This document shows, in pieces, positions 29,590 through 62,326 of a stretch of DNA of 64,000 bases. The DNA comes from Candidatus Latescibacterota bacterium (GTDB taxonomy: Bacteria; Latescibacterota; UBA2968; UBA8231). Position 1 is the first letter of the stretch, and every line of letters starts with the position of its first letter. The position numbers were made by a program, and so were the translations under genes. The stretch is taken from NCBI GenBank assembly GCA_965217585.1, contig OZ244561.1, positions 1,376,001-1,440,000 of the forward strand. The letters are read 5' to 3'. The notes beneath the pieces were generated by a model. The model was not told the origin of the DNA. It saw nothing but the letters and a program-made list of their open reading frames with translations, and searched no databases.

Positions 29590-29634
29590 TCGTTCAGCGG
29601 AGCTTCCGGCCAATTCTATCCCTCCTATGGCCGT

Positions 29635-30258: not shown

Positions 30259-30260
30259 AC

Positions 30261-31688: not shown

Positions 31689-31698
31689 GATTAGCTCC

Positions 31699-31947: not shown

Positions 31948-32027
31948 GGTTGTCTAACTTACAACTGTTTCGGAAGAGCGGTTCAAAGCATAATATCCGG
32001 ATCCGCTAAGTGGATCAACTCGTTCCA

Positions 32028-32438: not shown

Positions 32439-32532
32439 AATGGTCTCTTTGCGGTTATTCATTTTCCTCTCCTTCTAATGTGTCGCCGATAAGCGGCGAG
32501 CGAATGTACCTGTCGTTTAAGGGGCCCGACCT

Positions 32533-32784: not shown

Positions 32785-32840
32785 AGCATTCTCTCCTGAT
32801 TGACTAAGGCGTGGTTCTCGTAGATGACGAACAGATGGTA

Positions 32841-36416: not shown

Positions 36417-36960
36417 GTGATTGTGTACACCTTGCCAAAAAGGATTTCGAGAGTTACCGGAATCTTTCGTCCTGAGATTTAAGAAATATACCTATTAATC
36501 TGATGTCATCTTGGTAGATTAACCGCCCCACACCCGCCCAATCGCCCCCCGAATCTTCCCCTCCATCCGCTCCACCAACTCCCGATTAGCGGCGACAAGA
36601 GACTGCTCGGCTTCGATTTCGGCGACGATGGCTTGCTGGGTTTCGAGGGGAGGAAGCGGAATCTTGGTCTTGAACAACTGCGACCGGTTAATCTTTGGAA
36701 TGCTTGCTCGCTCGTAGTAATGCTGAATTTGTTTATTGAACGCTTCAGACAGCATATAGTTAGCCAGATAAGAGGCTTGGACTCTCGAATAATTCGGGAT
36801 CAGAGGATACATGTCGGAGCTACTGTATCCATGAAGGTCAACAATAGCCAATTTGTTGAGATATGGGCGAATTTTGCTGTAGAGTAGGCGCTCACCTGAG
36901 AATTCATAGACCGGCCCACTGACTCCTTGAGCCTGAATCGTCTCCACTTTAACGAGCTTA

Positions 36961-40835: not shown

Positions 40836-40850
40836 ATCATTATTGTATCG

Positions 40851-40911
40851 CATTCACGGTATATTGGCAAATATCCGTGAATGAACCGGGAAAAATGGAT
40901 GCCATTCACGG
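40851..40911. promoter_or_regulatory. Putative fic operator: CATTCACGG boxes
   Basis: CATTCACGG (40851) and CCGTGAATG (40875) form an inverted pair with a near-symmetric spacer; third CATTCACGG at 40903. Confidence 0.65.
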
Positions 40912-40940
40912 TTTTTTCGGATAAAGACGTTAATCGCGGA

Positions 40941-41009
40941 TTAGAAATCCGGATTGGTGATCTTGCATGTGGCGCTACGGAGCCTCGGGAACAAGCATTC
41001 CAGATTCAC
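40941..41009 (-). pseudogene. Truncated partner-gene remnant (22 codons)
   Basis: GTGA-coupled to the upstream gene; 'VNLECLFPRLRSATCKITNPDF*'. Confidence 0.35.
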
Positions 41010-41329
41010 CAGCGCAACCCTTTCCTGCGCGCCCACTTCAGCCAATCTTGGGTCATCTCTGCGACAACGCCCCGATGATCGGGAAGCACGGGATCTTCTC
41101 GTGCAATCGACCTAAGTGCCCAAAACCAGTGTTCCGGCTTGTGTTCGAGTTCTCTAAGAATCAACGGCAGCGCTGGCGGCCCCATGCCTATGATCTGCTG
41201 ATACGCAGGATGTAGAACGATCTCTCGTACTGAGGAAAAATGAGCGCATTCCTCACGTACAATTTCTGCGAGACGGTGGAACTGTTCTGGCAGGACATCT
41301 GGCTGGGGCTGTGGGAACTCCGTACTCAA
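41006..41329 (-). CDS. Small conserved hypothetical protein (TA-like)
   Basis: 'HPAYQQIIGMGPPALPLILREL..HWFWALRSI..DPV'. Confidence 0.7.
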   Translation of the reverse strand: MSTEFPQPQPDVLPEQFHRLAEIVREECAHFSSVREIVLHPAYQQIIGMGPPALPLILRELEHKPEHWFWALRSIAREDPVLPDHRGVVAEMTQDWLKWARRKGLRW

Positions 41330-41396
41330 AGCTTCACTCCCATATCAAAAAGGCTCGATAGCTGAATCTTCACGGCTCGAACGTCGTGTACCCTTT

Positions 41397-48438: not shown

Positions 48439-48513
48439 TATTGGACACCCGATAGAACTTTCATTTTGTCTCAAACTGCCCGATTTTTGGGAGCGCCTGC
48501 AAAGGACCACGCC

Positions 48514-50058
48514 ATGCAATTGAGAGAATCAATGGAATTGGGGGGCCAGCACCTGCTGGGCTGGCTCGACCCGGAGCGCGACTACCTGCCCACGGGCAGT
48601 TGGGCCATCACCCACGATCTGGGTCGCTGGTGGGACGCCATGCTGCGCCTTGAACGCGCCACTAACTTTGCCATCCCCGCACACGTGGAAGGGGCCAACC
48701 TGCGCAATCTCCACTGGCTCACCGACAATGCCGACGGGCTCCTCTGGGTGCCGCCGGGCCTGGATTGGCACCCCATCAAATTCGAACTCCACAGCCTGCG
48801 CGAGGGCATCCTGACCTTTGCCGCCCTAGCCCAGTACCGCAACAACGCCTGGGCCCACCAAGCCGGTCGCAAGTACCTCGAATCGATCCGCCGCGGCCTC
48901 AAGCCGGACTTCACCTGGGACTTCGACCAGTTCGACTACGCCCGCTACTTCACCGGCGGCGAAAACGAGGACCCGGGACACAAGCCCTCCAACGAGGGCC
49001 GCTTTGCCCTGACCGTCCAGCACGGCCGCTGCATCGAGGCCCTGGTGTGGTACTACGAGGCCACGGGCGACGCCCTGGCCATGGAACTGGCCGAGGACCT
49101 GGCCCGCTTTCACCTCGCGTACGCCACTGCCCCCGACGGCACCATCCCCGACGAACTGGCGCACCGGGCTATCGGCGACCGCCAATCCCACCTGTACACC
49201 CTGTGCGGCCTGCTGCTCTTTGGTTGCAAGACCCACCAGTCCGAATACGTCGACGCAGTGGTGCGCACGTACCGGGCCGGCGTCCCCGCGCTGGTCAATG
49301 AATGCGGCTGGGTCGCCCACGATATGGGCCAGACGCGCTTCCTCGACCAATCGGGCAATCTCATGGCCAACACCGAATCCACGGGCGCGGCCGCCCGGCT
49401 CGCCCTGTGGATGGCGCGTTATACCGCGCATACCGAGTGCTACGACGACGTCGAGCGGCTGGTGCGCGCCCGGCTTTTCCCGGGCCAGATCACCCAAGCC
49501 GATATCCACGCCAACCCAGACCTGGAAATTCCCTCTAGGGCGCTCGGCGGCTGGGGAGGCAACGACTACCCCCACGCTGGCAAGGGGTACAATCCCAGCG
49601 GCACGGCCGAAATCGTCCACACCATGAGCGCGATCTACCAGCACATCAGCGCCCTCGAAGAGGCTGGTCTCATCGTGTACATGCACTTCGACTACGCCGA
49701 CGACGCGGTCGAGATCAAAGCGGACAGAAGCGCCGAGGCCACCCTCGCGGTGCGGCCCCGCATCCACGACAATGTCCTGATCCGCGTGCCCGGGTGGGCA
49801 CCCCCGGAATCGGTCCGCATCGAGGTCGACGGCCGCCCAGCGGCCCTGCACATGGTGGGGTCATTCGCCTATCTCGGACGCCGGCAAGTAAGCGTCAACA
49901 GCCAGATCGTCCTGCGCCATGCCCTGCCAACCCGCCGCACGCAAGAGACCATGGCGGCCGGAGACACCTACCACTTTGCCTGGCGCGGCGACCAGATCAC
50001 CGGCGTGCATCCGAACGAGTGGCCCCTGCCGTTCTACCCGACGCTCGAGTCTTCCTAG
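48514..50058 (+). CDS. Hypothetical protein, possibly GH127-like (alpha/alpha)6-barrel glycosidase
   Basis: 'HDLGRWWDAM', 'DDVERLVRARL', C-terminal 'VLIRVPGWA' beta-sandwich. Confidence 0.55.
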   Translation: MQLRESMELGGQHLLGWLDPERDYLPTGSWAITHDLGRWWDAMLRLERATNFAIPAHVEGANLRNLHWLTDNADGLLWVPPGLDWHPIKFELHSLREGILTFAALAQYRNNAWAHQAGRKYLESIRRGLKPDFTWDFDQFDYARYFTGGENEDPGHKPSNEGRFALTVQHGRCIEALVWYYEATGDALAMELAEDLARFHLAYATAPDGTIPDELAHRAIGDRQSHLYTLCGLLLFGCKTHQSEYVDAVVRTYRAGVPALVNECGWVAHDMGQTRFLDQSGNLMANTESTGAAARLALWMARYTAHTECYDDVERLVRARLFPGQITQADIHANPDLEIPSRALGGWGGNDYPHAGKGYNPSGTAEIVHTMSAIYQHISALEEAGLIVYMHFDYADDAVEIKADRSAEATLAVRPRIHDNVLIRVPGWAPPESVRIEVDGRPAALHMVGSFAYLGRRQVSVNSQIVLRHALPTRRTQETMAAGDTYHFAWRGDQITGVHPNEWPLPFYPTLESS

Positions 50059-50076
50059 CGGCGGTTAGACGGCTTC

Positions 50077-50916
50077 TCAGGCCTGCTGCCAGCGGCTGGG
50101 ATTCACTCCCGGTGCCGCGCTCGGCATATTATCGGGTTTGTTGGGCACACCAAAGTCCCAGTGCCGCGTATTGGGATCGGTGAAAAAAGGACGCACCGAC
50201 TCGGGCAGCCCGGCCAGATCCTCTTCGTTCCAGTTCTCGACCTCGGCAATGGGGCCGGCCCAAGCCGGGCGGTACGCAATCGCCAGCACCGAGCGCGTGT
50301 ACTGGCCTCTGTTGGGCCAAGTGCCGTGGAAAGCGCGGTGGTTGAGAAAAACCGCCGCGCCGGCCTTGCACGGCACCACCACCTCCTCGGGATGGCGCTC
50401 GTAGCGCAGGTACGGATTGGCGTCGGCGTGCATGCACAAATGGGAGCGCGGAATGACGCGGAAAGGCGACACTTCGGGCGTCAGGTCATCGAGGTAGTAG
50501 AGCACGCGGATGGTGAAGGGACAACTGCCGTTGTTCCCGAAAATTTGCGAGCCGTAGGGCTGCCCGTCCGTGTGCAGGCTGATACCGGGCGTGCCGGGCT
50601 CGGAGCGGTCGTACCCGTAGCTGAGAAAGACGATCTCGTCGCCGAAGACCTGGCGCAAAAAATCAACGGTCGGCGGATGGGCGATGAGATCGGTCACAGG
50701 GCCCCCTTCAAACTGGATCTGGGACTTGCCGCGCTGGTGCGGACTGTAGTCGCGCGGCTTGGTCTCCCAGGTTTCGGCCTGGGCCTTGAGACGGGCGATG
50801 TGCTCGGGGCTGAGCAGGTCGGGAATGACTAGGTATCCTTCGAGTTCGACATGGCGGATGCGCTCGCCCAGAGTGAGGGCGGACCAGTCGCGGTCGTTGA
50901 TGGTGGCCTTTTGCAT
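50077..50916 (-). CDS. Phytanoyl-CoA dioxygenase (PhyH) family
   Basis: 'EGYLVIPDLLS', HxD 'LHTDG', 'YYLDDL', 'VIPRSH', 'FHG..R'. Confidence 0.85.
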   Translation of the reverse strand: MQKATINDRDWSALTLGERIRHVELEGYLVIPDLLSPEHIARLKAQAETWETKPRDYSPHQRGKSQIQFEGGPVTDLIAHPPTVDFLRQVFGDEIVFLSYGYDRSEPGTPGISLHTDGQPYGSQIFGNNGSCPFTIRVLYYLDDLTPEVSPFRVIPRSHLCMHADANPYLRYERHPEEVVVPCKAGAAVFLNHRAFHGTWPNRGQYTRSVLAIAYRPAWAGPIAEVENWNEEDLAGLPESVRPFFTDPNTRHWDFGVPNKPDNMPSAAPGVNPSRWQQA

Positions 50917-50949
50917 GGCAGACTCTCCTAGGTTGAGGTTATACCTCTT

Positions 50950-51009
50950 CTACACTGCGGCACTGCTGCCGCCGTCGATATTGATGGAGGCACCGGTGAT
51001 GAACTTTCG
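50950..51009 (-). pseudogene. C-terminal remnant of an SDR oxidoreductase
   Basis: Translates RKFITGASINIDGGSSAAV* (SDR 'xITGxxxxxDGG' tail). Confidence 0.6.
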
Positions 51010-52083
51010 TCAATTGTCGATCGGCACCTTTGCGCCAGTTTCCGCGCTCGCGTAAATCGCGTCCAGCAGCTTCATGAAGGTCAGCGCCTCGGCGGGAGAG
51101 ACATCGGGCGGCTGGGCACCGCGGATCGCGCTGGCAAAATCGCGGATCTCCGCGTTGAAGTCACCGTCGCCGTGTTCCACGAATTCACCAGCGGAATCGT
51201 CGCCTTCCGTGTAGATGGCACCCAGCAACCGACGCGTCCCCGAACGTCTCTTGCCCTCGGGCAGCGAAGTGGATTCCATCTCAATGGTGCCATCCGTCCC
51301 TAGGATGCGCAAGCGCAAATCCCACGCCCGGTCCGCCCAGGTGGAAATGACCGAGGAAGTATCCATCTGAATGGTCATACCGCCGGCGCAGCCCACCAGA
51401 AAACTTATGTAATCCTCGGAGTGACGCTCTACTTTTAGGGTTGTTGGAAACGCGCTATGGCTGACGGCAAAGGCCCATTCGGGTTGCGGACAACCCAGTA
51501 AGAACCAGGCCTGATCGAGGTAGTGCGAACCGTGTTGGCCCAATGCACCGCCCTTAAAACCCCACCGATATATCCAGCTCCTGCCCGGCGGCGGCTCATA
51601 ATTAGCTCCGCGCTCGCGATAGTGGTAGTGGACGCGCGCGTGATACACGTGCCCAATCCTTCCAGCGGCGATGATTTGCCGGTTCTCTTTGTTCTCCGCC
51701 TGGTGCCGCATGAAGTAGGAGTACACGAGCGTTTTTCCAGTGCTTTCCGCAACGGCGTTGATCTCCTCGACGTCTGCGGCATTGCGACCGTGCGGCTTCT
51801 GCACCAACACGTGCTTGCCCGCCTCCAGCGCCTCAATGACCATCGGCTTCCGCACATCGGGTGCGGTGGCGACTCCAACGGCTTCAACCTCGTCATCGGC
51901 GAGCAGCTCTCGATAGTCGCCGTAGATTTTGGGGACCTCGTGCTCCTCGGCGACCCGTCGAGCCAAATCTCGATCCAGATCGGCGACCGCCCAGGCGATG
52001 GTATCTGCGCCGGCTCGGGCACCTGCCACCCAAGCCCTGCCAACTCGGCAACCGATTACGCCCATTTTAATTTTGTCTATCAT
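51010..52083 (-). CDS. Gfo/Idh/MocA family oxidoreductase
   Basis: 'ALEAGKHVLVQKP', 'GGALGQHGSHYLD', 'AIYASAETG'. Confidence 0.85.
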   Translation of the reverse strand: MIDKIKMGVIGCRVGRAWVAGARAGADTIAWAVADLDRDLARRVAEEHEVPKIYGDYRELLADDEVEAVGVATAPDVRKPMVIEALEAGKHVLVQKPHGRNAADVEEINAVAESTGKTLVYSYFMRHQAENKENRQIIAAGRIGHVYHARVHYHYRERGANYEPPPGRSWIYRWGFKGGALGQHGSHYLDQAWFLLGCPQPEWAFAVSHSAFPTTLKVERHSEDYISFLVGCAGGMTIQMDTSSVISTWADRAWDLRLRILGTDGTIEMESTSLPEGKRRSGTRRLLGAIYTEGDDSAGEFVEHGDGDFNAEIRDFASAIRGAQPPDVSPAEALTFMKLLDAIYASAETGAKVPIDN

Positions 52084-52085
52084 AA

Positions 52086-53123
52086 TCACCTCCTTTGCAA
52101 TCGCTCGAGCTTTGCCTGCAGCCCGGGCTTTTCCAGCACCTCCCTGTTGACCACGTGCGCGGGAATTTCGCCGCGCCCAATTTGCGCCACCTGCCGGAGC
52201 CTGCCCCTCCAGGCCTGCATGTAGTACTCGTCGGTGTGGCACAGGGAGTGCGGCGAGACCACGACATGGTCCATTTTGAGGAGGGGATTGTCCGCATCGA
52301 TGGGCTCCTGCTCAAATACATCCAGCCCAGCGCCGCGGATGCGCCCGCTCTGCAGGACCCGTATCAGGGCTTGCTCATCGACGATGGGTCCCCGCGAAGT
52401 ATTGATCAGGTACGCCGTCTGTTTCATCAAGTTCAATTCCCGCTCGCCGATCAGGTGGCGAGTCTGCTCGCTGAGCGGTACGCTGATGCTGACGAAGTCG
52501 GACTCGGCCAGCAGGGTATCCATATCGACCAGTTCCACGTCCACATCGGCCACATCCTCCTCGCTCAGATTGGGATCGCAGCCCAAGTGCCGCATGCCAA
52601 AGGGCCTAGCCAGCAGGAACAGCTCGTGCCCGATATTGCCCACGCCAATGGAACCGAGCGTCTTGCCGGTCAGCCCTTCGCCGCGGTAGAGACGCTGGTC
52701 GGCCCAGCGCCCCTCGCGGGTGATCCGATCCTTGTTGAGCAGGCGCGTGGCTAGGGCCAGCATAAAGGTCATGATGGTGCAGGCCATGGGCCGGCGCACG
52801 GCGTCGGGGGCCGAGCAGAGCATTGCATTGGCCCGGGTCAGGGCCCCGACATCGATATGGTCGTACCCGACGCCGGTGAGGAGCACAGCCACGAGCTGGT
52901 CGTTGCCAATTAGGGAGCGCTCGCTCCAGCGGGACGCGCCCGAGATAACCGCGTCGCAGCCGCGCACTTGCTCGGGGGCGATTTCCGCGCGCTGCTCGGC
53001 CAATATCCGGTACTGGATTCCGGGCATTTCAGCGAATAATTCAAGCCCGGGGCCGGGCAGGTTGAAGTTCCCCTCCGCATCGAAGAAATCCCGGGTGATT
53101 CCAACCGTGACTTTAGTGGTCAT
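52086..53123 (-). CDS. D-2-hydroxyacid dehydrogenase family
   Basis: 'GVGYDHID', 'GSIGVGNIG', 'INTSRG', 'GLDVFEQEP', 'SPH'. Confidence 0.9.
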   Translation of the reverse strand: MTTKVTVGITRDFFDAEGNFNLPGPGLELFAEMPGIQYRILAEQRAEIAPEQVRGCDAVISGASRWSERSLIGNDQLVAVLLTGVGYDHIDVGALTRANAMLCSAPDAVRRPMACTIMTFMLALATRLLNKDRITREGRWADQRLYRGEGLTGKTLGSIGVGNIGHELFLLARPFGMRHLGCDPNLSEEDVADVDVELVDMDTLLAESDFVSISVPLSEQTRHLIGERELNLMKQTAYLINTSRGPIVDEQALIRVLQSGRIRGAGLDVFEQEPIDADNPLLKMDHVVVSPHSLCHTDEYYMQAWRGRLRQVAQIGRGEIPAHVVNREVLEKPGLQAKLERLQRR

Positions 53124-53922
53124 CTGCATCCTCTCGGTACATGGAAAAAGCCCGCACCGCGCCGTCGCGGAGCAGGTCGTATTCGCTGTGGCGGAAGCGA
53201 CCCACCAGTTGGATGCCGGCCCGGCGCTGGCGCAGGTACTCCTGGCGGTTGCGCGGATAGATCGCCGGCTCAGTGGCGATCCCCCTAACCAAGGCGATCT
53301 CGACGACGCGCTCCATGGCCCGCACCACTTCCGGGTGTTCCCAATCGCCGTGAAAACCCATGGTCGCCGCCAAGTCGCCGGGGCCAAAGACCACGGCGTC
53401 CACCCATTCGTTGGCGAGCATGGCCTCGGCGTTCTCGACGCCGCGCCAGGACTCGATTTTGAGGATGAGCATCGTGGCCGCGTTGGCCTCGCGGCAATAG
53501 CGGGCCGCCTCGACAGAGGCGTACTCCACATTGGCACCCATGGCCAGCCCCCGCTCCCCGTCCGGCGCGTATTTCATCCAGCGCACCAGCGCCGCGACTT
53601 GCTCGGGCTCTTCGGCGTGGGAGAGGCAAATCCCCAGCGCGCCCGCATCGAGCAGCCGCGATACAAAGGGACGCTCGGGCACCAGGACCGTCACCGCCGG
53701 AGCAAGGCCGTTGTCCCGAGCCATGACCAGGAAGTTGGTCAGGGTTTCGTCGTTGTGGATCACGTGCTCGTTTTCGACCAGCAGCATATTGTACCTCGCC
53801 TGGGCCGCGATCTTGATCACCGAAGGACGCAGCGACTCGAAGACATTGAAGCCAAAGAGCGGCCCACCGCTCTGGAGAATTTCCTTGGCCGGGTTGCGGA
53901 TAAGGGGATCTTCTGCCGCCAT
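53113..53922 (-). CDS. HpcH/HpaI aldolase family
   Basis: 'VENEH', 'LDAGA', 'YAPDGERG', 'IES', 'FGPGDL'. Confidence 0.85.
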   Translation of the reverse strand: MAAEDPLIRNPAKEILQSGGPLFGFNVFESLRPSVIKIAAQARYNMLLVENEHVIHNDETLTNFLVMARDNGLAPAVTVLVPERPFVSRLLDAGALGICLSHAEEPEQVAALVRWMKYAPDGERGLAMGANVEYASVEAARYCREANAATMLILKIESWRGVENAEAMLANEWVDAVVFGPGDLAATMGFHGDWEHPEVVRAMERVVEIALVRGIATEPAIYPRNRQEYLRQRRAGIQLVGRFRHSEYDLLRDGAVRAFSMYREDADDH

Positions 53923-53923
53923 A

Positions 53924-56095
53924 TCAATCCATTTCTGCAAAGCGACGCAACACGTTCTCGGTGATGCGGGAGACATTGTTGTCACCGCGATTGTATGAAA
54001 GGCAACTGCACCAGCTAATAGAGCCCACCGAGAATACCGCGCCACCCTTGGGGCCTTCAAAGTACACCATGTCGGACCGCACCAGGGGGTTCTGGCTGCC
54101 GCCGGTATTGGGGGCCGAGACCAACTGGTCTTCAATGGCCACCTGGTACAGATCGGTGAAGCCCTCGGCCGAAGCGAGCAAGAGGACGTGGTCGGGCGTG
54201 CCCTGGCCGCGGTCGATCCGGTCGATTTCAAAGCCGCCGGCGCCGTGTTCCAGAACCAGGGAGGGAAAGTCGCCGATTAATTCCTCGGGGGCCAGGCCCG
54301 CAAAGATAAAGGCCGCCCTCGGGTCCAAACTGTCCGGCTGCCGTCTGTAGGGGCGGTTGCGACCGCCGCCCTGAGAGGTAAAACCAACGCCGACCATTTT
54401 TTGCGGTGCCCGGTTGCGAAAGCGCCAGAGGCCACCCATCTCGCCCGTGGTGCTGTGGAAGCTCTCGCCGGGGGCGGCCTCCCAGGCGCGCGAGCCCCGC
54501 CAGCGCCTGACTTCGACGATGTGCGGACGCCCGGGGTCGAAGGAGGCGATCCAGTAGAAACCGTTGCCGCCCAGGTACATCAGGCGGCCGCCCCCCGCTT
54601 GGTACGATTCCAGCCCTTTGAGCATAGACGCCGTCCAGTACTCTGGATGCGTGCCGGTGAGGATCACCTGGTACGGCTCCAACAACTCGCTGCCTTCGCC
54701 GTGCAACTCGTCGTCGGTGATCACATCGTAGGCAAAGCCCTTGGTGTCCAGCCAGTCGAGCAGATGGAGATCGGCGTTGAGCAGGCGGGGCCAGTCCGCG
54801 GCCAGAGAGCGGGAGGGCATGCGGTACAGGGGACGAAAATTGACGATCGGCCGCCGGCGCGACGAATAGCAGACACCCGTGCCGTCGCTGTGCAGGTCGT
54901 AACAGCTCAAGAGCCGCTGGTCCTGCATGTACTGGTCTTGCGGGGCGGTGTCGCTGCTTGCGCGCAGGTCCAGCATGGCGCGGATCGGATCGTTAAAGCG
55001 CTGGTTGGCATAGACTAGGTACGTGAGAGTGGGCGCGAGGAAGGCGATGCGGGCACGGGCCTTTGCGGGGACGACGATAAAGGGCAGATAATCCTCGGCG
55101 TCGGCGCTGGTCAAGTGGGCCGCGTACACGCCGCTCGGCCAGTGTGGGGGCACGGTCCACTCGAAGGCGGCATCCCACTGGGCGTCTTCGAGATCGTCGT
55201 CGTGGAAGTGAATGGCCCCGTACTGGCTGGGGGCGACTTTGAAATCCGCCTCGTCGCCGGTCCAGTTGTGCCCAGTCACGGCCCGGGTCGGCAGGTTGAC
55301 CGTGCGGCCGTGGAGTTGGTTGGCCTCGGTGTCGCGCACTATTTCCGCGCCGATATCTAGGGAAAAGTCCCAACTAGCGATCGGGGTGTCGGCGTCGGCC
55401 TCCGCCGTGGAAAGCGCGCGGTCGTAGAGCCGCGGATTGTCGATCTTGCCATTGAAGTGGTGGGCGGCCGCCGGCCCCGAGGCAGCGCAGGCCATCAGCA
55501 AATCCTCCTCGTTCTCTCCCACAACCAAGGGGCGGATGGTTTTGCAGACCCTTGCTTGGGCGCGGGCCACCGGCCAGTTGGACTGCAGCTCTTGGTAGAG
55601 GCAGACTGCGCCAGTGGCCGCGTCGTAGCTGGCGGCGATACAGTGCCATTGAGCTGGGTGCAGGGGCACGCCGGTGCTCACTTTTTCCAGCCGCGTCCCA
55701 GCGCCGACCCACAGGGCCAGCGACCCGTCCTCATCGATAAAGAGGCCATAGCCCGATTGGCCGGACAACTTGGTCAACAGCCCTTGCAGGCCCTTTTGCG
55801 GCGTGGTGGGGTAGATCCACGCCCGCAGGGTAAACCCATTGGGGCAATTCAACAAAGGGTGGTGCGGCACGGCTGCGTACGAGCCGCTGTGGATGGCCTG
55901 GTACTGACCCGGGTACTCGCCGCTGATCGAGGATGCGAGCGCTTCGATTTTGCAGCCGGGACCCTCGGGATTGGCGTCCGTATGCCGCAGGCGCACGAGT
56001 TGGGCGCGGTACGCGGGCGCTTCGCTGCTGACCATAAAGCGTATAGTCTGCCCGGGCCGCACACTGAAACGGTCGCTGTACCCGACGATTTTCAT
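53924..56095 (-). CDS. N,N-dimethylformamidase beta-subunit family protein with LamG-like domain
   Basis: 'YGAIHFHDDDL', 'PTLTYLVYAN', 'YDLHSDG', 'TGTHPEYW', 'YLGGNGFYW', 'FSVGSISW'. Confidence 0.85.
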   Translation of the reverse strand: MKIVGYSDRFSVRPGQTIRFMVSSEAPAYRAQLVRLRHTDANPEGPGCKIEALASSISGEYPGQYQAIHSGSYAAVPHHPLLNCPNGFTLRAWIYPTTPQKGLQGLLTKLSGQSGYGLFIDEDGSLALWVGAGTRLEKVSTGVPLHPAQWHCIAASYDAATGAVCLYQELQSNWPVARAQARVCKTIRPLVVGENEEDLLMACAASGPAAAHHFNGKIDNPRLYDRALSTAEADADTPIASWDFSLDIGAEIVRDTEANQLHGRTVNLPTRAVTGHNWTGDEADFKVAPSQYGAIHFHDDDLEDAQWDAAFEWTVPPHWPSGVYAAHLTSADAEDYLPFIVVPAKARARIAFLAPTLTYLVYANQRFNDPIRAMLDLRASSDTAPQDQYMQDQRLLSCYDLHSDGTGVCYSSRRRPIVNFRPLYRMPSRSLAADWPRLLNADLHLLDWLDTKGFAYDVITDDELHGEGSELLEPYQVILTGTHPEYWTASMLKGLESYQAGGGRLMYLGGNGFYWIASFDPGRPHIVEVRRWRGSRAWEAAPGESFHSTTGEMGGLWRFRNRAPQKMVGVGFTSQGGGRNRPYRRQPDSLDPRAAFIFAGLAPEELIGDFPSLVLEHGAGGFEIDRIDRGQGTPDHVLLLASAEGFTDLYQVAIEDQLVSAPNTGGSQNPLVRSDMVYFEGPKGGAVFSVGSISWCSCLSYNRGDNNVSRITENVLRRFAEMD

Positions 56096-56239
56096 TCGAT
56101 TCTCCGCGCCACTAGGGCCGTGCAACGCCCCTGCAACCGCTTCTAGCCTACTCCTCGGTCGGCTCCGAGACGACGCGACATTTTTCGTCTACTACCACGG
56201 TCCAGACACAAGCAGACACAAGAAATCCAGGACCAACCT

Positions 56240-57250
56240 CTATTGTGCAGGGGCCAAGTTATTCAAGCAGAGTGGAGTTTCGACGTTCGAACGGATGAAG
56301 GCGATATGATCATTCTGTCCTGGCTTGATGTCACGCGCATTATCTAGGGGCACAACAATCGTCCCCCCACAACAGCGATGGTCCGCGCGGCCCAATGCAA
56401 AGGCACTACTCAAATGCGACATCGATCCTGATGGCTCAGTCTTAGAGCAGTGCTCTGACAGTTGCGTACATACGATTCTGGCACTGGGCATGATCTCTCG
56501 CAAGACGCTAATGATCTCAGGATTTGGAGCACCGTAACGCCCGCGACCAAAGGAAAAGATCACAGTTATAGGCTCTACGGCTTCAAGTAGCCTCTCAGTG
56601 AAGGAGCGAATGTCCGCTGCACCCGGACGACCTCCATGATGTGGGTAGACCAAAATGGGTATCTTCAGGTCCATATTTTGCATCAGCAGATCGTCTAGTC
56701 CAATTCCGTCGATGTCTGCGGGCAGAATGGCCACGTGCTTGCCGGACACGCTTATCCGTATCACCGCACTGATAGAATTGCTAGTGATCCTCCTCCCTGA
56801 TCCGTTTTTATTACCTACGCCCTTCAGGGCTAAATAAGGGCTTGGAGCCATTACCCGAATCTCTATATCGCCAAAATTCTCGCCCTTCCCCGAGACCAAG
56901 CCGACATCAAGCTGCAAAGTACCAGCCATGTGCGCGCTGTTCAGCTCGTAAGCTAAGTCATTCCAGATCTCAGTATCCTTCAAAGCGTCATTGTTGAGCA
57001 CAACTCTGTCTATAGTCACTATACCCGACGCCAACAACCCAACAAGGGCACCGATGTGGTCCTCGTCAGCATGAGATAGGTAAACTGTCCGAATTCTCTT
57101 GATGCATTGCTGGTCCAAGAACTCCAGAAGCCCACTGCGACGCCCAACATCAACGACAACCACTTCGGTATCTCCCACGACTACAGTGCAGCTTCCATGA
57201 CCAACATCGAGAATGTACAGATGACGTCGTAGCTTGCTCACGGCATTCAC
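56240..57250 (-). CDS. ComEC/Rec2-like metallo-beta-lactamase-fold hydrolase (putative nuclease)
   Basis: 'ILDVGHG', 'SHADEDHIG', 'NSISAV', 'LPADI', 'YPHHG'; GTGA overlap with upstream stop. Confidence 0.85.
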   Translation of the reverse strand: MNAVSKLRRHLYILDVGHGSCTVVVGDTEVVVVDVGRRSGLLEFLDQQCIKRIRTVYLSHADEDHIGALVGLLASGIVTIDRVVLNNDALKDTEIWNDLAYELNSAHMAGTLQLDVGLVSGKGENFGDIEIRVMAPSPYLALKGVGNKNGSGRRITSNSISAVIRISVSGKHVAILPADIDGIGLDDLLMQNMDLKIPILVYPHHGGRPGAADIRSFTERLLEAVEPITVIFSFGRGRYGAPNPEIISVLREIMPSARIVCTQLSEHCSKTEPSGSMSHLSSAFALGRADHRCCGGTIVVPLDNARDIKPGQNDHIAFIRSNVETPLCLNNLAPAQ

Positions 57251-57909
57251 TTGGATTCCCAATCATCGAAGAACAGATCCTCGTGGCTCTCTGCACCGAT
57301 GTTAACTAGGGCATGAAATCTTCTACCGGGCTCGACAAGATCGCGTATCTCATCCGAAAGACTGTCCTCATAGAGCCTTATCTTTTGTTGAGGGTCCCAC
57401 GCCGGCACAATGGCGTAAAGATACCTGCCCTCTTTATCGACCTCAGCAACTCGGACGAGCGTACGCCGTGGTTTTCTCGTGGAATGGAATGTACCACCGA
57501 TCTCACAGAGCCCCTTGCTCCAAGCCATGGTGAGTGCTTCTGGCTCTGGACTGTTGGTCTTGAGCAGTGCTGGTATGTACCGGAGACAATCGCGACGAAT
57601 TGTCACGTTAACATCAGTAAATGTCGTACAGAGCATTCCTGGTATACCAGCTTTATGACACTCTGCCACGAGAATATCCCCATCGCATTTGGCGTAGTCG
57701 TACTTCTTAAGATGGTAGTCACAGACTACGGCATCTGCTAACTGCTCCGCTTCGGCTACGAACGACTCTGCAGTGTCGACGGGGCCTTCCATCATGACTG
57801 GTTCCAACCCCAAATCCTCGACGGGATACCCGTATCCAACCCGCGCTTCTGGGTCGTCGTCCACAATCATAACTCGACTGATCTTTCTGTTGTGAATCGT
57901 TATCGACAC
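57247..57909 (-). CDS. Receiver (REC) domain protein with unknown beta-rich C-terminal domain
   Basis: 'MIVDDD', phospho-acceptor-like D64 'VVCDYHL', 'LCTTF', 'LLK'. Confidence 0.75.
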   Translation of the reverse strand: MSITIHNRKISRVMIVDDDPEARVGYGYPVEDLGLEPVMMEGPVDTAESFVAEAEQLADAVVCDYHLKKYDYAKCDGDILVAECHKAGIPGMLCTTFTDVNVTIRRDCLRYIPALLKTNSPEPEALTMAWSKGLCEIGGTFHSTRKPRRTLVRVAEVDKEGRYLYAIVPAWDPQQKIRLYEDSLSDEIRDLVEPGRRFHALVNIGAESHEDLFFDDWESK

Positions 57910-57911
57910 GG

Positions 57912-59978
57912 TTACGCTCCTAGGATAGGAAGCTCTACAGTAATTACCGCCCCGCCGAGTTCCCCTCTCTCTATGGCGTCCACTTCCCCACCCAAATCCT
58001 TGACTGCATCTCGGACAATCGTAAGTCCAAGGCCGGTCCCGTTCTTGCGCGTGGTACGTCCTGGAAGCCAGATATCGGTCTTCCGTATATCTTGGATTCC
58101 CGGGCCACTATCGTGGACTGTTAGGGTCCAGCGACCTTGTGAAATCGATGTCGAAACCCTAACAACCCTGGCACGTGTACCTCCACTTTCAAAGGCTGCC
58201 ACACTGTTATTCAGGAGATTCGTGAAGATAGACTCGATAGCAGCATCACTCCCCTTCAAGTAGGGTTTCCCTGCATAGAAATCTTTCTGCACAGTAACAT
58301 CTCTTCCTTTAAGAAACGGATCAAAGGTATCCAACACCTCCTGCAATCGCCTATGGAGGTCGACGCGAGAGGCCCTCCGCTTTTCATGGTCAACCAATTT
58401 GAGAGTTGCCGTCCCTAATACAGCCAAGCTCTTCACCGCTCGTCTAATACCATCAACGGGCTGCTGAAGGAATTTGCTATAGTCGTCCTTGAGCAGCTTC
58501 CGGGCCCTCCGAGCAATAGCTTCGACTGACTGCGAAACCACCTTGATCGGATTCCCACTTGACTCGTGAGCAAACGTGACGGCTGTAATTCCAGCGGTGC
58601 TGAGGGTTCTGTATAGTTGTATCTCTTTTTGAAGAAGATCAACTTCGCGGTCCCTTGCAGATTCGTAAGTAGCAAACGCCTGCTCAGTGGTTTTGCGTAA
58701 CTCAGACGGCACATTGGCGATCGCTTTTTCTACTCTACGCCTTGCCACGTCAACTCGTTTCGGAGATGATGTCCGCTCTCGGGAACGCCGCTTCTCCGCC
58801 GCCTCCATCCTCCGATTGGCCATCCACCCCATGGCATCTTGGGCGAACAGACGGAGTTCGATGAAGGATTCATCCTCGATAAATCCAGACCGGTCTGTCT
58901 TCTGGACGAGTCTCTCACGCCTGTCGGTGACATCCACACGTCCAATTGAGGTGTTAGTTCCCGGTCTCTCCTCTGGACTTCGTACGCGTCGGAGATTCAT
59001 CTCCAACCAATCGTCGCCGGGATTGCCATATGGGCTTACTCGCAGGCCATTATAATAAAAGTGGACTCCACCGAATTCGTGCAGCCACTCTTGTACCTCT
59101 TTAACACTCGACCTTCTGGTAGAAAAGGTCTCTTGATTGAGTATGAAGACCCACAAATCGAAGGTTGCAGGCGGACTTTTGTAAGTCTTCTCGTCTCTAT
59201 GTACTGCGATGTCCCTATGACTAGCGACGTAAAGTTCTTGCCCCTTCCAGTCCACAATGCGTGCACTCGCTTGTCCCTCTTTGTCGATTTCCGCCCGCAG
59301 ATGATACTCCGCGTCTTGGAAATACCGACTACGCACGAGAGTCTCTAGATCTTCGTACTCTGGGGCCACTAACTCTGGACGGAATCCTTTTGGATCATCC
59401 CCGAACGGGTCGGCAAGCAGAATTAGTTCCCGGGCCAACCTTTTCACTACCGTCCGACCAAAGCCAGTTCTTAATTCTTCAATCCGGATCTCGGTTCCGG
59501 GCTGGGTTCCCTTCTTCCTCCTTTCAGTCTCCACGTTCAGCTCTACATCATCGACGAGATCAGCCGTATCGAACTCTTCCCAGTCTATGAGCAGACCGTG
59601 CTCAGTAGTCTTCTCTTTCCGTGGGGAAGTCGTCATGAGCGCTCGCTTGCCCATTCGCAGGGCGGCAAGCCTCCCAAGGCCCTTACTACCTGCTGGTATC
59701 CGCCCGAGACGTGTCTTTTGGCGCTGGGTCTTTGTCGATTTACCCAGGACCAGCCACCCATTGGTAATATCATCAACGGTCATTCCATCGCCATTATCCT
59801 TGACGAGAACCATGCCCCCTGCTGCGTCGGTACTTTGCAGCTCAACCTTGCATTTAGTCGCATCTGCGTCGTACGCATTCTTGACAAGCTCAAGCACCCC
59901 CTTGTCTAGGCTCGGATTTAACTCCTCGCCCAAGCGCTTGAGTATCTCAGTTGAAAACCGAATCCGTGCTGTACTCAT
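57912..59978 (-). CDS. MORC/MutL-like GHKL ATPase fused to a histidine kinase
   Basis: N-terminal 'ELVKNAYDA', 'DNGDGM', 'GSKGLGR'; H-box 'TFAHE'; C-terminal 'NLLNNS', 'DSGPGI', 'GTGLGL'; no TM segments. Confidence 0.88.
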   Translation of the reverse strand: MSTARIRFSTEILKRLGEELNPSLDKGVLELVKNAYDADATKCKVELQSTDAAGGMVLVKDNGDGMTVDDITNGWLVLGKSTKTQRQKTRLGRIPAGSKGLGRLAALRMGKRALMTTSPRKEKTTEHGLLIDWEEFDTADLVDDVELNVETERRKKGTQPGTEIRIEELRTGFGRTVVKRLARELILLADPFGDDPKGFRPELVAPEYEDLETLVRSRYFQDAEYHLRAEIDKEGQASARIVDWKGQELYVASHRDIAVHRDEKTYKSPPATFDLWVFILNQETFSTRRSSVKEVQEWLHEFGGVHFYYNGLRVSPYGNPGDDWLEMNLRRVRSPEERPGTNTSIGRVDVTDRRERLVQKTDRSGFIEDESFIELRLFAQDAMGWMANRRMEAAEKRRSRERTSSPKRVDVARRRVEKAIANVPSELRKTTEQAFATYESARDREVDLLQKEIQLYRTLSTAGITAVTFAHESSGNPIKVVSQSVEAIARRARKLLKDDYSKFLQQPVDGIRRAVKSLAVLGTATLKLVDHEKRRASRVDLHRRLQEVLDTFDPFLKGRDVTVQKDFYAGKPYLKGSDAAIESIFTNLLNNSVAAFESGGTRARVVRVSTSISQGRWTLTVHDSGPGIQDIRKTDIWLPGRTTRKNGTGLGLTIVRDAVKDLGGEVDAIERGELGGAVITVELPILGA

Positions 59979-61279
59979 GGCTTATACCACCATGGCATCT
60001 CAGCTAAAACTGAGGTCGTTAAGTGCCTACAGCGAAGTCGTCTGTTAAGCCAATTGTCCGTCTTGCTAGACTGAAGGCGTGTTATCAAAGCTCGACAGGT
60101 GTCCTCAGTTCCATCTTTCGGTAGCAACACCATCAGATGGTTTTCTACGGCTACTGCACCTTTACCAAGTACCAGGGTGGCTATCGCACGCTTTCCGCCG
60201 TCCGGCCTTGATGTCCTTCTGATAGCTACGAATGGCGGTTCAAAGAGACGCCCGGTAAATTTTCGCTTCTCCACGATCCGCTTTTGTTCCCCCCACGCGG
60301 GTAAAGAACGTGCGTGGATGTATCGGACTTCTGGACCCACTTCCTCGTGGCGATGTGGCACCACAGGTCCCACATGAACTGCGAATCGTCTGCCAATACC
60401 TCCGGGTTTTCTAGCACTGATTGAGACCCCTGCCTTGCCTCCCTTCTGCTCCCTAGTCTTCAGGAGGTCGAGAAGGTACACATCAACGTCAGCCCATCGG
60501 TCGAACAGGCCGAGCGGGCGCTCTCTACGAATCGCACCCAAAGTGCTGATCATGTTGCGCCAGTGTTCGTAACGACTCCCTGATCGAAGTACGTCCGGCA
60601 GGATTGCGACAATCCTGGTTCCTTCTTGGGAATCTTGAATTGCTCTCTCTGCGAACATTGCCGCAGCGCTGATCCGACCTCGCGCCCATTCGCATTCATC
60701 AGGAGCATGAGTATAACCGAACGGCGGGTTCATGATTACAACGTCAGTACGATACGAACGTTTCGAATGAGATAGGAAGTCGGCCTCGACTATCTTCGGA
60801 AACGTGCGATCAAGCACTAGACTCTCGTCACTGGGACGGACTCCACAACGCTTTGAAGCCAGCAATGCGAGTCTGACCTTCGCCAAACGGACGAAATCCG
60901 AGGAGATGTCGCAGCCAGCTAGGCATCGTCCCCAATGGTCGAGGGTTTCCCTGAACGTGTTGGAAATTGGCAGTTTCTTCGCCACAGCAAGTAGGAGGTC
61001 GCCTGCACCGCACGTTGGGTCGAGATATACTTGTTCGTAGTCCGCACCAACGTCAAGTACCTTTGCTAGCCGCATAGCCATATTGGCACCAGTAAAATAG
61101 GCCCCCTGCTCTTTCAACCGTGAATGATTCTCTTCTCGGCGGAGCATCTCTCCAGGCTCACCGTCTAGGCACATTGTCAGCTTCCGCTGCCACTCGACAG
61201 GCCTAAGAGTCTTTCGTCCCTGGGCTAGCTGCTCAAGCTCGTCAACGTATCGGCGAAATTGTCTCAATGTATTTACCAC
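59975..61279 (-). CDS. N6-adenine DNA methyltransferase (gamma class, TaqI/Eco57I-like)
   Basis: Motif X 'GAYFT', motif I 'LDPTCGAG', motif IV 'NPPF', 'ILPD'; C-terminal TRD-like region. Confidence 0.88.
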   Translation of the reverse strand: MVNTLRQFRRYVDELEQLAQGRKTLRPVEWQRKLTMCLDGEPGEMLRREENHSRLKEQGAYFTGANMAMRLAKVLDVGADYEQVYLDPTCGAGDLLLAVAKKLPISNTFRETLDHWGRCLAGCDISSDFVRLAKVRLALLASKRCGVRPSDESLVLDRTFPKIVEADFLSHSKRSYRTDVVIMNPPFGYTHAPDECEWARGRISAAAMFAERAIQDSQEGTRIVAILPDVLRSGSRYEHWRNMISTLGAIRRERPLGLFDRWADVDVYLLDLLKTREQKGGKAGVSISARKPGGIGRRFAVHVGPVVPHRHEEVGPEVRYIHARSLPAWGEQKRIVEKRKFTGRLFEPPFVAIRRTSRPDGGKRAIATLVLGKGAVAVENHLMVLLPKDGTEDTCRALITRLQSSKTDNWLNRRLRCRHLTTSVLAEMPWWYKP

Positions 61280-61645
61280 ACTCGGGTTTAGATACTCGAA
61301 GGATACGGCTACAAGGGTACCTACTTGAAATCGACAGGTTTCGACCTACACGTTCTCGTAATTCTTTGTTCAACAGTATGTTAGAGTTGGAAATCGTTGA
61401 AAGCGTGAACCCACTGATTGCATTATGTTTACGAAGTTACCTTCGCACTCCGCAAGCCGCAAGGTATTTCGCCTGCCGCTCGATCTCTTGAAGCAGTTCC
61501 CTCCTATACTTCTTGCGCCAAGACGCAGTAAGGCTGACGGACTTTGCGGCTCCACAAACTTGTTTACTGCGGAATATTAGTCAAGATATCCGGTATTTAT
61601 GCGAGGCCCTATACCCGTCCACTGAATTCGCGTCTCCCGACCAGC

Positions 61646-62326
61646 CTACGCCAGCTTCTCGTCAGAAGCGATGCGGCCGTCGTGGATGCGGATCATCCGC
61701 TCGGCCTGTAGGGCAATAACCGGATCGTGGGTCACCAAGAGCACGGTGTTGCCCTCCTCGTGCAAGGTATCGAAGAGAATCATGATCTCCTCGCCGGTGC
61801 TAGAGTCGAGGTTGCCAGTAGGCTCGTCGGCCAACAGCAGCGACGGCCCATTGGCTAAGGCGCGGGCAATGGCCACCCGCTGACATTGGCCGCCAGACAG
61901 CTCGGCCGGGCGGTGCGTCATGCGGTCGGCCAAGCCAACCCGCTCCAGCGCCTGCATCGCCCGTTCACGGCGCACCTTGCGACGTTGGCCATTGTAAATC
62001 AGCGGCAGTTCGACGTTTTGCAGGGCCGATGCGCGCGGCAGCAAATTGAAGGTCTGGAAGATGAAGCCAACGCGGCTGTTGCGCACTTCGGCCAACTCGT
62101 TGGCATTCATGCGCGACACATCCGTGCCGTCCATGCGATACGTCCCATCGGTGGGCGAGTCCAAGCAGCCGAGGATGTTCATCAGCGTGGATTTGCCCGA
62201 GCCAGAAGGCCCCATCAGCGCGACGTATTCATTGTCCCCAATCGCCAAATCCACCTCCCGCAAGGCGTGAACCTCCTCGGTGCCGCGCACGTAAACCTTG
62301 CTAATGCCATTCAGTTCGATCAGCAC
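61646..62326 (-). CDS. ABC transporter ATP-binding protein (MacB/LolD-like)
   Basis: GPSGSGKST, 'LSGGQCQR', '[10 protein letters not shown]'. Confidence 0.92.

Follow-up and report, generated by a model that had tools for sequence, protein, structure and literature searches.

A methylase, a MORC-like histidine kinase, a receiver and a ComEC-like hydrolase form a conserved cassette and candidate immune module in Latescibacterota and other bacteria

The four-gene operon

The genome of Candidatus Latescibacterota bacterium (GenBank assembly GCA_965217585.1, contig OZ244561.1) carries a compact cassette of four genes, whose organization, distribution and possible function we describe here. The cassette lies in a stretch of 64,000 nucleotides (positions 1,376,001 to 1,440,000 of the contig), referred to as the window, and coordinates without a locus name are positions in it. 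All four genes are on the minus strand. In the order of transcription they encode a N6 methyltransferase (P0001, 59975-61279, 434 aa), a MORC-like ATPase/histidine kinase (57912-59978, 688 aa), a receiver protein (57247-57909, 220 aa) and a hydrolase of the metallo-beta-lactamase (MBL) fold. The MBL open reading frame (ORF) is longest from a TTG start (56240-57262, 340 aa). We favored the GTG start at 57250 (56240-57250, 336 aa), because six of the seven closest relatives listed were 333-336 aa long and two of these began at the matching place in the alignment, with the N-termini MNTVSKL and MSKL.

The genes are tightly coupled. As read from the sequence, the methylase stop and the kinase start overlap in an ATGA (59975-59978), and the kinase and the receiver are separated by a 2-nt gap (TAA-CC-GTG, 57910-57911). 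The receiver stop and the MBL start overlap in a GTGA (57247-57250), provided that the MBL begins at GTG 57250. The G + C content was 0.50-0.556 over 56000-61499, compared with 0.59-0.68 in every interval of 48500-55999 and 0.59-0.63 from 61500 onward. A first-pass annotation of this DNA had described four tightly coupled minus-strand genes in a block of lower G + C content, and this observation is confirmed. Compared with the copy in a genome of the same genus (L001), all four genes were intact and had a ratio of nonsynonymous to synonymous substitution rates (dN/dS) of 0.16-0.28. All four are thus under purifying selection.

Upstream of the methylase gene there is a non-coding leader of 366 bp (61280-61645, minus strand), presumed to hold the promoter region. 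It contains short ORFs of 37-74 aa, and the next gene encodes an ABC ATPase. No regulator gene was identified in 61250-61660, where ORFs of at least 25 aa were listed without a family-library scan. A scan of 55800-62000 gave promoter-like sites not above chance (3 found, 3.6 expected), two terminator-like sites (5.0 expected) and no flanking direct repeats of note. The whole inserted block extends over 5519 bp (56127-61645), from the end of a DMFA2-like gene to the end of the ABC ATPase gene.

The ABC-transporter flank was 92-94% identical in five genomes of the same genus, and one of these five, G137 (L048/L001), had the cassette. The slot was 953 bp wide in G129 and 905 bp in G135, as against the 5519 bp of the window. 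The 1.5 kb that follow the flank in G134 and G130 were unrelated to the window. The slot in G129 (L045:3466-4231) held a ribbon-helix-helix (RHH) antitoxin-like gene (RHH_5, 3.2e-5) together with a PIN gene (1.1e-12), indicating a variable hotspot. From these sequence comparisons, we regard the block 56127-61645 as a horizontally acquired four-gene operon.

Methylase and kinase

The methylase matched the Pfam families N6_Mtase (8.6e-7) and Eco57I (8e-4), and the type II methylase models of PADLOC (MTase_II, 2.1e-15). Its catalytic region spans residues ~53-250. The GAYFT, DPTCGAG and NPPF motifs, on which the first-pass annotation had based its call of a gamma-class N6 methylase, were all present in P0001. 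Among nine relatives, D87, P88, C90, G91, G93, N184, P185 and P186 were invariant (DPxCGxG and NPP). The C-terminal half had the conserved blocks VGPVVPHR, RRTSRP, AVENHL and CRHLT, and the isoelectric point (pI) of the protein was 9.8. The predicted product is a gamma-type N6-adenine DNA methyltransferase with intact catalytic motifs.

The kinase has three parts. The first is a MORC/MutL-like GHKL ATPase domain (residues 1-190; 59409-59978, minus strand), recognized by HATPase_c_3, NF050001 and sequence matches in the PDB. It is followed by an alpha/beta middle region, aligning with the transducer part of GHL ATPases (residues ~200-360; 58899-59379, minus strand) and recognized by Foldseek on the model. 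The third part consists of long helices with the H-box, followed by a catalytic and ATP-binding (CA) domain (residues ~370-688; 57915-58869, minus strand), recognized by HATPase_c, kinase models and Foldseek.

In the N-terminal part, Pfam HATPase_c_3 covered residues 25-126 (9e-21). Residues 9-185 matched the N-terminus of the BbrUII/HgiDII restriction enzymes (NF050001, 1.2e-20), well below the 550-bit cut-off of that model, and the PADLOC REase_II match (6.4e-11) was likewise to the GHKL N-terminus only (residues 5-174). The best PDB matches by sequence for residues 1-450 were MORC2, MORC3 and MutL (1.2e-4 to 7e-4). A Foldseek search with the AlphaFold model gave DNA-bound MORC2 (9cdh_A, 4.5e-12 over 480 columns), SMCHD1 (6mw7, 6.8e-12) and the MutL fragment LN40 (1b63, 1e-9, template modelling score 0.60 on the target), with MORC3, Hsp90/TRAP1 and GyrB among the other best matches. 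The alignments to MORC2, SMCHD1 and LN40 ran over 417-480 columns, which would be compatible with a transducer of the S5 type, in a model with a mean predicted local distance difference test (pLDDT) of 73. Among 28 kinases, the ATPase residues E30, N34, D61xGxG65 and G97/G100/G102 were invariant, as was K360, within the block QKTDRSGF.

In the C-terminal part, Pfam HATPase_c covered residues 580-685 (1.5e-21), and NCBIfam kinase models covered residues 447-685 (e.g., AtoS, 3.1e-20). The closest structures to the model were CpxA (4biu, 2.2e-10), ZraS (9jfj, 2.5e-10) and YycG. In the same 28 kinases, H471-E472 of the FAHE H-box (H471 codon 58566-58568) was invariant, together with the N, G1 and G2 boxes of the CA domain (N587, N591, D623xGxG627, G647-L652). 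Because the motif residues are invariant in these relatives, both ATPase modules and the H-box look intact. The pI of the kinase was 9.2. In our reading, the protein joins an ATPase module of the GHL type to a histidine-kinase core, and we take it to be cytoplasmic or soluble. The MORC-type ATPase and the complete histidine-kinase module proposed in the first-pass annotation are thus both borne out by sequence and by model.

Receiver and its output domain

The receiver gave no Pfam match, and its receiver (REC) fold was recognized from the AlphaFold2 model alone. This model had a pLDDT of 94.4 and a predicted template modelling score (pTM) of 0.87. The REC domain comprises residues 1-141 (57487-57909, minus strand), as delimited by the model, VIA and Foldseek. 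Its best VIA match was 1sd5_A (Z 13.0, root mean square deviation 2.7 A, 120 residues aligned). All 50 rows in the VIA list had a Z of at least 10.5 and nearly all were receiver domains, and Foldseek matched response regulators with 5e-5 to 1e-3. In an alignment of 23 receivers, D17, D18 and D64 (D64 codon 57718-57720) were invariant and T95 was nearly so. The earlier call of a REC protein with D64 as phosphoacceptor agrees with this fold and with the three invariant aspartates. A PDB profile search with the receiver alignment gave weak matches to REC domains, the best at 0.018.

Residues 142-220 (57250-57486, minus strand) form a beta-rich output domain, delimited by the model, by the complex prediction described below and by a viral homologue. 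In the model of the window's receiver (pLDDT 94) it is made up of five strands plus a short helix and shows neither a helix-turn-helix nor a winged helix. Twelve of its positions were invariant in the 23 receivers (R145, R149, L151, R153, P169, A200, V202, N203, G205, A206, F214 and E218). The receivers are acidic, with a median net charge of -10 for the REC domain and -2 for the output domain among the same 23 relatives. For residues 142-220 the PDB profile search found nothing credible, a Protein Atlas search with the output domain gave no usable match, and the PADLOC models gave zero matches for the receiver. The output domain, about 80 residues long, thus seems to belong to no recognized family. 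We do not claim it as a new fold, because the whole-model fold searches (Foldseek and VIA) were filled by REC domains.

MBL hydrolase and its predicted complex with the receiver

The MBL hydrolase matched Lactamase_B (Pfam, 2e-9) and ComEC/Rec2 (NCBIfam TIGR00361, 1.2e-8). A profile of 28 relatives, searched against the PDB, was closest to ComEC MBL domains (9ic4, 1e-14; 30bt, 1.7e-14; 9vcb, 1.3e-13), and the next match was the choline-binding esterase CbpE (1.8e-6). The HADEDH motif corresponds to H64..H69. In the 28 relatives H64, D68 and H69 were invariant and D66 nearly so, and D19, D183, D185, H208 and H209 were also invariant. The ComEC-like assignment of the first-pass annotation therefore holds, and so does its statement that no PD-(D/E)xK or HNH motif is recognizable, since Pfam, at E <=0.1, reported neither family in the four proteins. 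Past the MBL core there is an extra C-terminal cluster of invariant cysteines and histidines (C265, C272, H283, C297, C298, H319 and C332; residues ~265-332, window 56240-56460), which no ComEC MBL match reached. This cluster suggests an extra metal site. Weak PADLOC matches were found to the RTasMBL (1.9e-6), LmuA (2.8e-5) and PDC-M48B (1.1e-4) models, and some members of the family carried a second precomputed MBL-type Pfam label, PF23023.

We predicted a complex of the MBL and the receiver in three runs and with three controls, using alignments that we supplied. The median score was 0.85, and the best control reached 0.00. Of 80 solved complexes 58 attained that mark, as did 2 of 110 mismatched pairs; these counts are rough for our case, in which our own alignments were used. 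The runs agreed in at least 98% of the contacts, and the pLDDT of the partners was at least 89.

On the receiver side, the interface was formed by the output domain only (residues 142-143, 146, 148-151, 153, 167, 169-171, 173-174, 197, 199 and 203-206). These are largely invariant positions and take in R149, L151, R153, P169, N203, G205 and A206. On the MBL side, the interface comprised residues 42-47, 67-80, 98-106, 290 and 293, including the helix right after the H64-x-D-x-D-H69 motif. The prediction supports a docking of the output domain beside the metal site of the MBL. Because of this predicted complex, the acidic receiver and the lack of a helix-turn-helix, we favor a post-translational gating of the MBL over transcriptional control. 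The first-pass annotation had proposed that phosphotransfer licenses the MBL effector. The modelled contact adds a direct link between receiver and MBL to this proposal, and its nuclease step stays presumptive.

Conservation, distribution and decay

To count gene order we searched all loci by tblastn with the four proteins and considered those in which the match to the receiver family had 3 kb or more of flank on each side (n = 13). The order methylase, kinase, receiver, MBL was kept in 10 of the 13 (L001, L002, L003, L016, L017, L023, L025, L027, L043 and L052), an outcome in favor of the conserved order that the first-pass annotation had put up for checking. The remaining three loci (L018, L044 and L042) did not have it. 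Partial contigs fitted the same order, with methylase and kinase in L004, and receiver and MBL in L024 and L026. One further match, in genome G051 (L035), was outside the locus count.

Full-length kinase relatives were found in four species-representative genomes, two from Latescibacterota, one metagenome-assembled genome (MAG) from Opitutales and one Naasia MAG. The named records with the full cassette come from Latescibacterota, Opitutales, Bacteroidota (a Hymenobacter plasmid) and Betaproteobacteria (a Burkholderia plasmid), and partial or degenerate relatives from Actinomycetota and Cyanobacteriota. Cultured bacteria carry it on plasmids, namely on NZ_CP095070 in Hymenobacter volaticus and on p1 (NZ_CP028965) in Burkholderia sp. 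IDO3. The annotation there goes no further than N-6 methylase or "type I M subunit" for the methylase, sensor kinase or ATP-binding protein for the kinase, hypothetical protein or response regulator for the receiver and MBL fold hydrolase for the last gene. All four receiver-bearing plasmid records were also the four closest kinase records, and in the three receiver-bearing plasmid regions inspected the kinase adjoined the receiver.

The best 120 of 2115 kinase relatives were all at least 63% identical and 603-713 aa long. The receiver family formed 106 clusters at 90% identity. A profile search against 1.84 billion representatives gave 1279, 721 and 330 receiver proteins at E <=1e-3, <=1e-10 and <=1e-30, respectively, the last being clusters at 50% identity. 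The best 150 receiver relatives had 125-239 aa, nearly all of them 206-239 aa with three shorter, and none was a fusion. For the MBL family there were 339 matches. Scanning metagenomes with the receiver alignment confirmed at least 7 loci among the 598 pattern matches listed.

Within the phylum of the window, 9 of 168 genomes had a match, including the window genome itself (G000). Two of these nine had the output domain only, one a split receiver and one an orphan receiver. In the window's genus, one of the 30 genomes other than G000 had a match. In the phylum of the Opitutales record, 2 of 401 genomes had a match, and the second (L052) had all four genes. Together, the conserved order, the plasmid copies and the variable chromosomal slot support the view that the four genes form one conserved, mobile module.

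Several copies are decaying. L018, the Pseudanabaena plasmid NZ_AP017563, had no methylase gene, and its MBL gene was split by an IS982 transposase. In L003, the Opitutales MAG, the methylase was in two frames, the kinase was frameshifted and an IS3-type integrase gene lay between kinase and receiver; the MBL was intact. In L042 (7177-9420, genome G104) the receiver gene was split by an IS66-family transposase. Upstream of this split receiver we also observed a N6_N4 methylase-like ORF and an 858-aa protein matching the PADLOC CARF models (7.3e-26). The receiver homologue in L044 adjoins a protein with Schlafen/AlbA_2, HATPase_c_4 and Fic-like_C domains, and a Fic protein is found ~1 kb off on its other side.

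Stand-alone output domains, including a viral copy

When viral contigs were scanned with the receiver alignment, no whole receiver was found. The output domain alone was present on two viral contigs, L050 and L051 (L051:21-125). On L050, an IMG/VR contig, it formed an ORF of 87 aa (4540-4803, plus strand), which hhalign matched to columns 141-218 of the receiver alignment (probability 99.2, E 2.1e-19). The viral ORF retained the RPWRT, PGW and HAxVNTGA blocks, which make up the predicted interface with the MBL. It was on the strand opposite to its neighbours, and nearby ORFs matched a major tail protein PHROG (1.3e-5, weak) and endonuclease VII (1.6e-18). Neither the output domain nor the 87-aa ORF had a match in the GenBank phage collection. 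The N-terminus of the kinase matched only distant GHKL proteins there (5 records), one of them annotated as ParaMORC3.

Two Latescibacterota genomes encoded 210-aa proteins sharing only the output domain (residues 149-218/220), in L040 (7320-7952, plus strand) and in L041 (~7281-7496, minus strand). The N-terminal part of the L040 protein (genome G058) matched phrog_19191 (7e-6), and the ORF upstream of it (6540-7289) matched an S-AdoMet lyase family (7.5e-6), with 26.4 bits just below the 28-bit cut-off. A prophage context for this protein was unsupported, since none of nine further neighbouring ORFs had a PHROG match.

A viral output domain without a REC domain would most simply be read as a competitor for the docking site. 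We treat the stand-alone output domains, both the viral ones and those in the 210-aa proteins, as candidate decoys of the receiver-MBL docking domain, and as a lead only.

Relation to known systems

We found no paper describing a cassette of methylase, GHKL-kinase, receiver and MBL, with the limit that the supplements of the Ambrosia preprint and of PMC8011034 might list MBL variants. The first-pass annotation had not recognized a named system. This part of its claim holds for PADLOC and for the literature found, and needs to be amended for two precedents, the HEF_HK pairs (PMC8011034) and Ambrosia (10.1101/2025.09.30.679545). The cassette is a new, widespread and unnamed variant of a kind already known from the work on Ambrosia and HEF_HK.

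Ambrosia was described in a 2025 preprint from Pseudomonas aeruginosa (10.1101/2025.09.30.679545). It consists of AbrR, AbrA, AbrB, AbrC and AbrD, with a HipB-like XRE regulator first, then a N6 methylase, a HATPase kinase, a REC protein with a wHTH (winged helix-turn-helix) and a type IV HNH enzyme. Phage protection needs every gene and the receiver residue D60, and expression is induced upon infection. The authors describe it as restriction-modification-like under two-component control and report it from Gammaproteobacteria, 76% of them Pseudomonadales.

Our cassette shares with Ambrosia the gene logic and the order of N6 methylase, HATPase-type kinase, REC protein and nuclease, the MBL nuclease being a predicted one here. 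It differs from what is described there in several respects. The output domain is beta-rich, whereas the Ambrosia receiver has a wHTH, and the last gene encodes a ComEC-like MBL as effector, where Ambrosia has a type IV HNH enzyme. No XRE regulator was identified with the cassette, where the leader ORFs (37-74 aa) were listed without a family scan. Control is predicted to occur by direct contact of receiver and effector, whereas in Ambrosia it is proposed to act via transcription. Finally, the cassette and its relatives are found in Latescibacterota, Opitutales, Actinomycetota, Bacteroidota, Betaproteobacteria and Cyanobacteriota. We set the two systems apart by their described architecture and not by comparing Abr sequences.

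Bellieny-Rabelo et al. (2021, PMC8011034) described soluble proteins with HATPase_c_3, HEF_HK and HATPase_c domains beside Response_reg_2 proteins. The two are linked in 91.6% of cases over 644 regions, and the pairs are enriched near genes of restriction-modification, chiefly those for C5 methylases, HNH_2 and Vsr. The kinases are proposed to descend from paraMORCs. The study relies on computation only, and what it puts forward is a regulatory role and no direct gating. The cassette resembles these pairs in its kinase with HATPase_c_3, a dimerization and histidine phosphotransfer (DHp) region and HATPase_c, in the adjacent divergent receiver and in the upstream methylase. It differs in that the methylase is of the N6 type, theirs being mostly C5, and the term "Lactamase" occurs 0 times in the main text of PMC8011034. 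Membership in the respective families was rejected. HEF_HK (PF19191) had no match in the kinase at E <=0.1 and, genome-wide at E <=1, only two weak places elsewhere, both below the cut-off. Response_reg_2 (PF19192) had no match in the receiver and 0 in the whole genome at E <=1.

More distant plasmid-borne GHKL-kinases were observed in Agrobacterium, Enterobacter, Campylobacter and Hymenobacter (L019-L022), with 23-30% identity; their partners, REC-type or unannotated proteins, are longer (340-439 aa). Next to the Campylobacter pair there is a C5 methylase, and the Hymenobacter pair is flanked by methylases; in the Agrobacterium and Enterobacter stretches none was annotated. Campylobacter accounted for 43 of the 139 plasmid records with a match. 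These four kinases and their receivers had no PF19191 or PF19192 match. As such distant kinases pair with longer REC proteins, in two of four regions near methylases, the GHKL-kinase/receiver theme appears to be modular.

The N-terminal GHKL domain with its MORC/MutL-like motifs and the link to a methylase and a nuclease, here a predicted one, are shared with the MORC/paraMORC ATPases (Iyer, Abhiman and Aravind 2008, PMC2292703) and with BbrUII/HgiDII (NF050001), and the transducer-like region may be as well. In the cassette, by contrast, the ATPase is fused to a histidine-kinase core and would signal via a receiver, and the words "receiver" and "two-component" occur 0 times in the main text of PMC2292703.

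The MBL shares the H-x-D-x-D-H and HHG motifs with the MBL domain of ComEC/Rec2, its closest solved structures. Unlike ComEC/Rec2, it is a stand-alone, soluble protein with an added Cys/His cluster and a receiver partner, and has no membrane channel or oligonucleotide/oligosaccharide-binding (OB) domain. Two further assignments were rejected, membership in MADS (NF047738, 26.7 bits at a cut-off of 720) and a classical type II restriction-modification system, as no PD-(D/E)xK, HNH, GIY-YIG or PLD enzyme family was found by Pfam in the four proteins.

Detocs reportedly combines a sensor kinase of the TPR type with a separate buffer receiver and with another receiver that is fused to a nucleosidase effector, and is not known to include a methylase. 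The cassette differs by its MORC-like sensor, its separate MBL effector, its single receiver gene and the methylase in the operon. Detocs is described as an anti-phage system in which His-Asp phosphotransfer switches the effector on after translation (bioRxiv 10.1101/2023.01.24.525353).

Proposed function and alternatives

We lean, with some reserve, towards reading the operon as an immune module of a restriction-like kind, directed against phages or other incoming DNA and wired by a cytoplasmic two-component phosphorelay. The interpretation of the first-pass annotation is partly supported, in that the single module and the direct licensing of the effector have gained computational backing. 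The defence role, the self-marking and the DNA sensing are inferences, the last two drawn from the protein families. In the proposed mechanism, the GHL module would signal to the kinase core that DNA is foreign or unmodified, or would relay another cue of infection, probably via ATP-driven dimerization on DNA, as in MORC and MutL. The phosphate on H471 would then be handed to D64 of the receiver. The beta-rich domain would sit on the MBL helix right behind the H-x-D-x-D-H motif, and phosphorylation of the REC domain would switch the nuclease on or off post-translationally and not via transcription. The polarity of the switch could go either way, the receiver activating the MBL or holding it inactive until phosphorylated. 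Host DNA would be modified by the methylase, so that the sensor or the nuclease would spare self. The more specific combination, namely a MORC-type clamp as kinase input, direct gating of the nuclease by phosphorylated D64 via the beta-domain, and a stand-alone beta-domain on the docking site as the answer of the phage, is a tentative one, and clearly more doubtful than the immune role.

Several points weigh against this interpretation. The complex score is a model confidence and no measurement. The AlphaFold model of the kinase is of middling quality (mean pLDDT 73.3, pTM 0.58), and the stretch with the H-box (451-481) has a pLDDT below 50. In the receiver, the canonical REC lysine before a proline is not evident (I112-P113); R106 and R110, nearly invariant in the 23 sequences, might serve as its substitutes. 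With choline esterases as the nearest solved relatives after ComEC, a substrate of the MBL other than DNA is conceivable. An intact receiver homologue (L044:7438-8184, minus strand, genome G108, 63% identity) has neither kinase, methylase nor MBL within ~7.5 kb, and may be an orphan or work with other partners. In the window, the cassette is directly adjoined by housekeeping genes, namely those for an ABC transporter and a DMFA2-like protein. As candidate for a named PADLOC system the cassette gave generic matches only (MTase_II 2.1e-15, mad2 4.3e-11, REase_II 6.4e-11 and the weak MBL models). Regarding the self-marking step, methylation by AbrA did not protect phage in Ambrosia (10.1101/2025.09.30.679545), which cautions against a plain role of the methylase in marking self.

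The last point leads to the alternative that survives best, although we consider it unlikely. Here the logic would be inverted, as may be the case in Ambrosia. The methylase would make the mark that is acted on, be a part of the sensor or tune the MORC-like sensor, and the phosphorelay would silence a self-toxic pair until infection. Phage grown on AbrA alone stayed sensitive, and the authors suggest that the nuclease may act on AbrA's mark (10.1101/2025.09.30.679545). The ATGA overlap of methylase stop and kinase start would fit a methylase-sensor complex. However, the predicted nuclease of our cassette is a ComEC-like MBL without a known modification-reading domain, and not a type IV HNH enzyme. 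Moreover, the sole methylase-less locus (L018) also has a broken MBL, as loss of protection would select (n = 1), and L003 combines a broken methylase and a broken kinase with an intact MBL.

Somewhat less probable still is a transcriptional model, in which the receiver, once phosphorylated, would bind DNA and induce the operon. The methylase and the MBL would then be made only during infection, and no direct contact between receiver and MBL would be needed. Such a mechanism was proposed by the authors of Ambrosia, the sole validated relative of this kind, whose AbrC has a wHTH; reporters replacing AbrA or AbrD were induced on infection (10.1101/2025.09.30.679545). The 366-bp leader ahead of our operon would also fit. 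The receiver itself argues for gating at the protein level instead. Its output domain has no helix-turn-helix in the model of five strands and a short helix, both its domains are acidic in the median (-10 and -2), and the predicted complex places the output domain on the MBL (0.85, best control 0.00). Also, no XRE-type regulator was identified alongside, the leader ORFs having been listed without a family scan and the flanks being the ABC transporter and the DMFA2-like gene.

We regard it as improbable that the cassette is a selfish addiction module. By post-segregational killing it would then mainly keep itself and its plasmid or hotspot stable, as many restriction-modification systems and toxin-antitoxin pairs do, and defence would be no more than a side effect. 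Its slot is taken by a RHH and PIN pair in a relative, and the cassette adjoins ParDE on the Burkholderia plasmid (L017) and is found on large plasmids. On the other hand, a DNA-clamp-like, ATP-driven sensor with a full phosphorelay is far more machinery than addiction needs, and the viral copy of the output domain points to a conflict with phages; both roles would be compatible. Least probable of all is that the cassette is no conflict system, but a cytoplasmic signalling pathway controlling a phosphodiesterase whose substrate would be a small molecule or phosphodiesters of the cell envelope, the methylase being an orphan neighbour. The phosphorylcholine esterases next to ComEC (1.8e-6), the PF23023 label on some MBL members and the metabolic and transport genes flanking the window cassette speak for it, whereas the methylase's place in the conserved order (10 of 13 loci), the overlap of its stop with the kinase start, the sporadic distribution on plasmids and in a hotspot, the MORC/MutL-like sensor and the decay mediated by insertion sequences in three loci speak against it.

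Examples of two-component signalling in immunity against phages have until now come from Detocs and, as a preprint, from Ambrosia. As a candidate restriction-like immune module, the cassette offers a testable case that combines a MORC/MutL-like ATPase as sensor of a cytoplasmic kinase, a new receiver output domain and a predicted contact site on a ComEC-like nuclease. It could reveal how MORC-type ATPases convert DNA recognition into a signal, a question that concerns both prokaryotic and eukaryotic MORCs. If the proposed mechanism is true, there would be a post-translational His-Asp switch on a DNase, plus a matching viral decoy, with the viral output-domain ORF as a candidate phage counter-measure. 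The plasmid copies in cultured Hymenobacter and Burkholderia make material for such work accessible.

Neighbouring genes

Near other copies of the cassette we found a 949-aa Eco57I/MmeI-like enzyme (L002), and FRG-TPR and STAND-TPR genes (L003). In the window, a cluster of conflict-type genes was observed ~12 kb from the cassette (25570-43934). It encoded an AAA_16 ATPase (25570-27120), an AAA_15/AAA_21 ATPase (30261-31322), a PIN_12 protein of 1191 aa (32841-36416), a type I HsdM-S fusion (37859-40054), a Fic protein (39945-40853) and HsdR (41397-43934).

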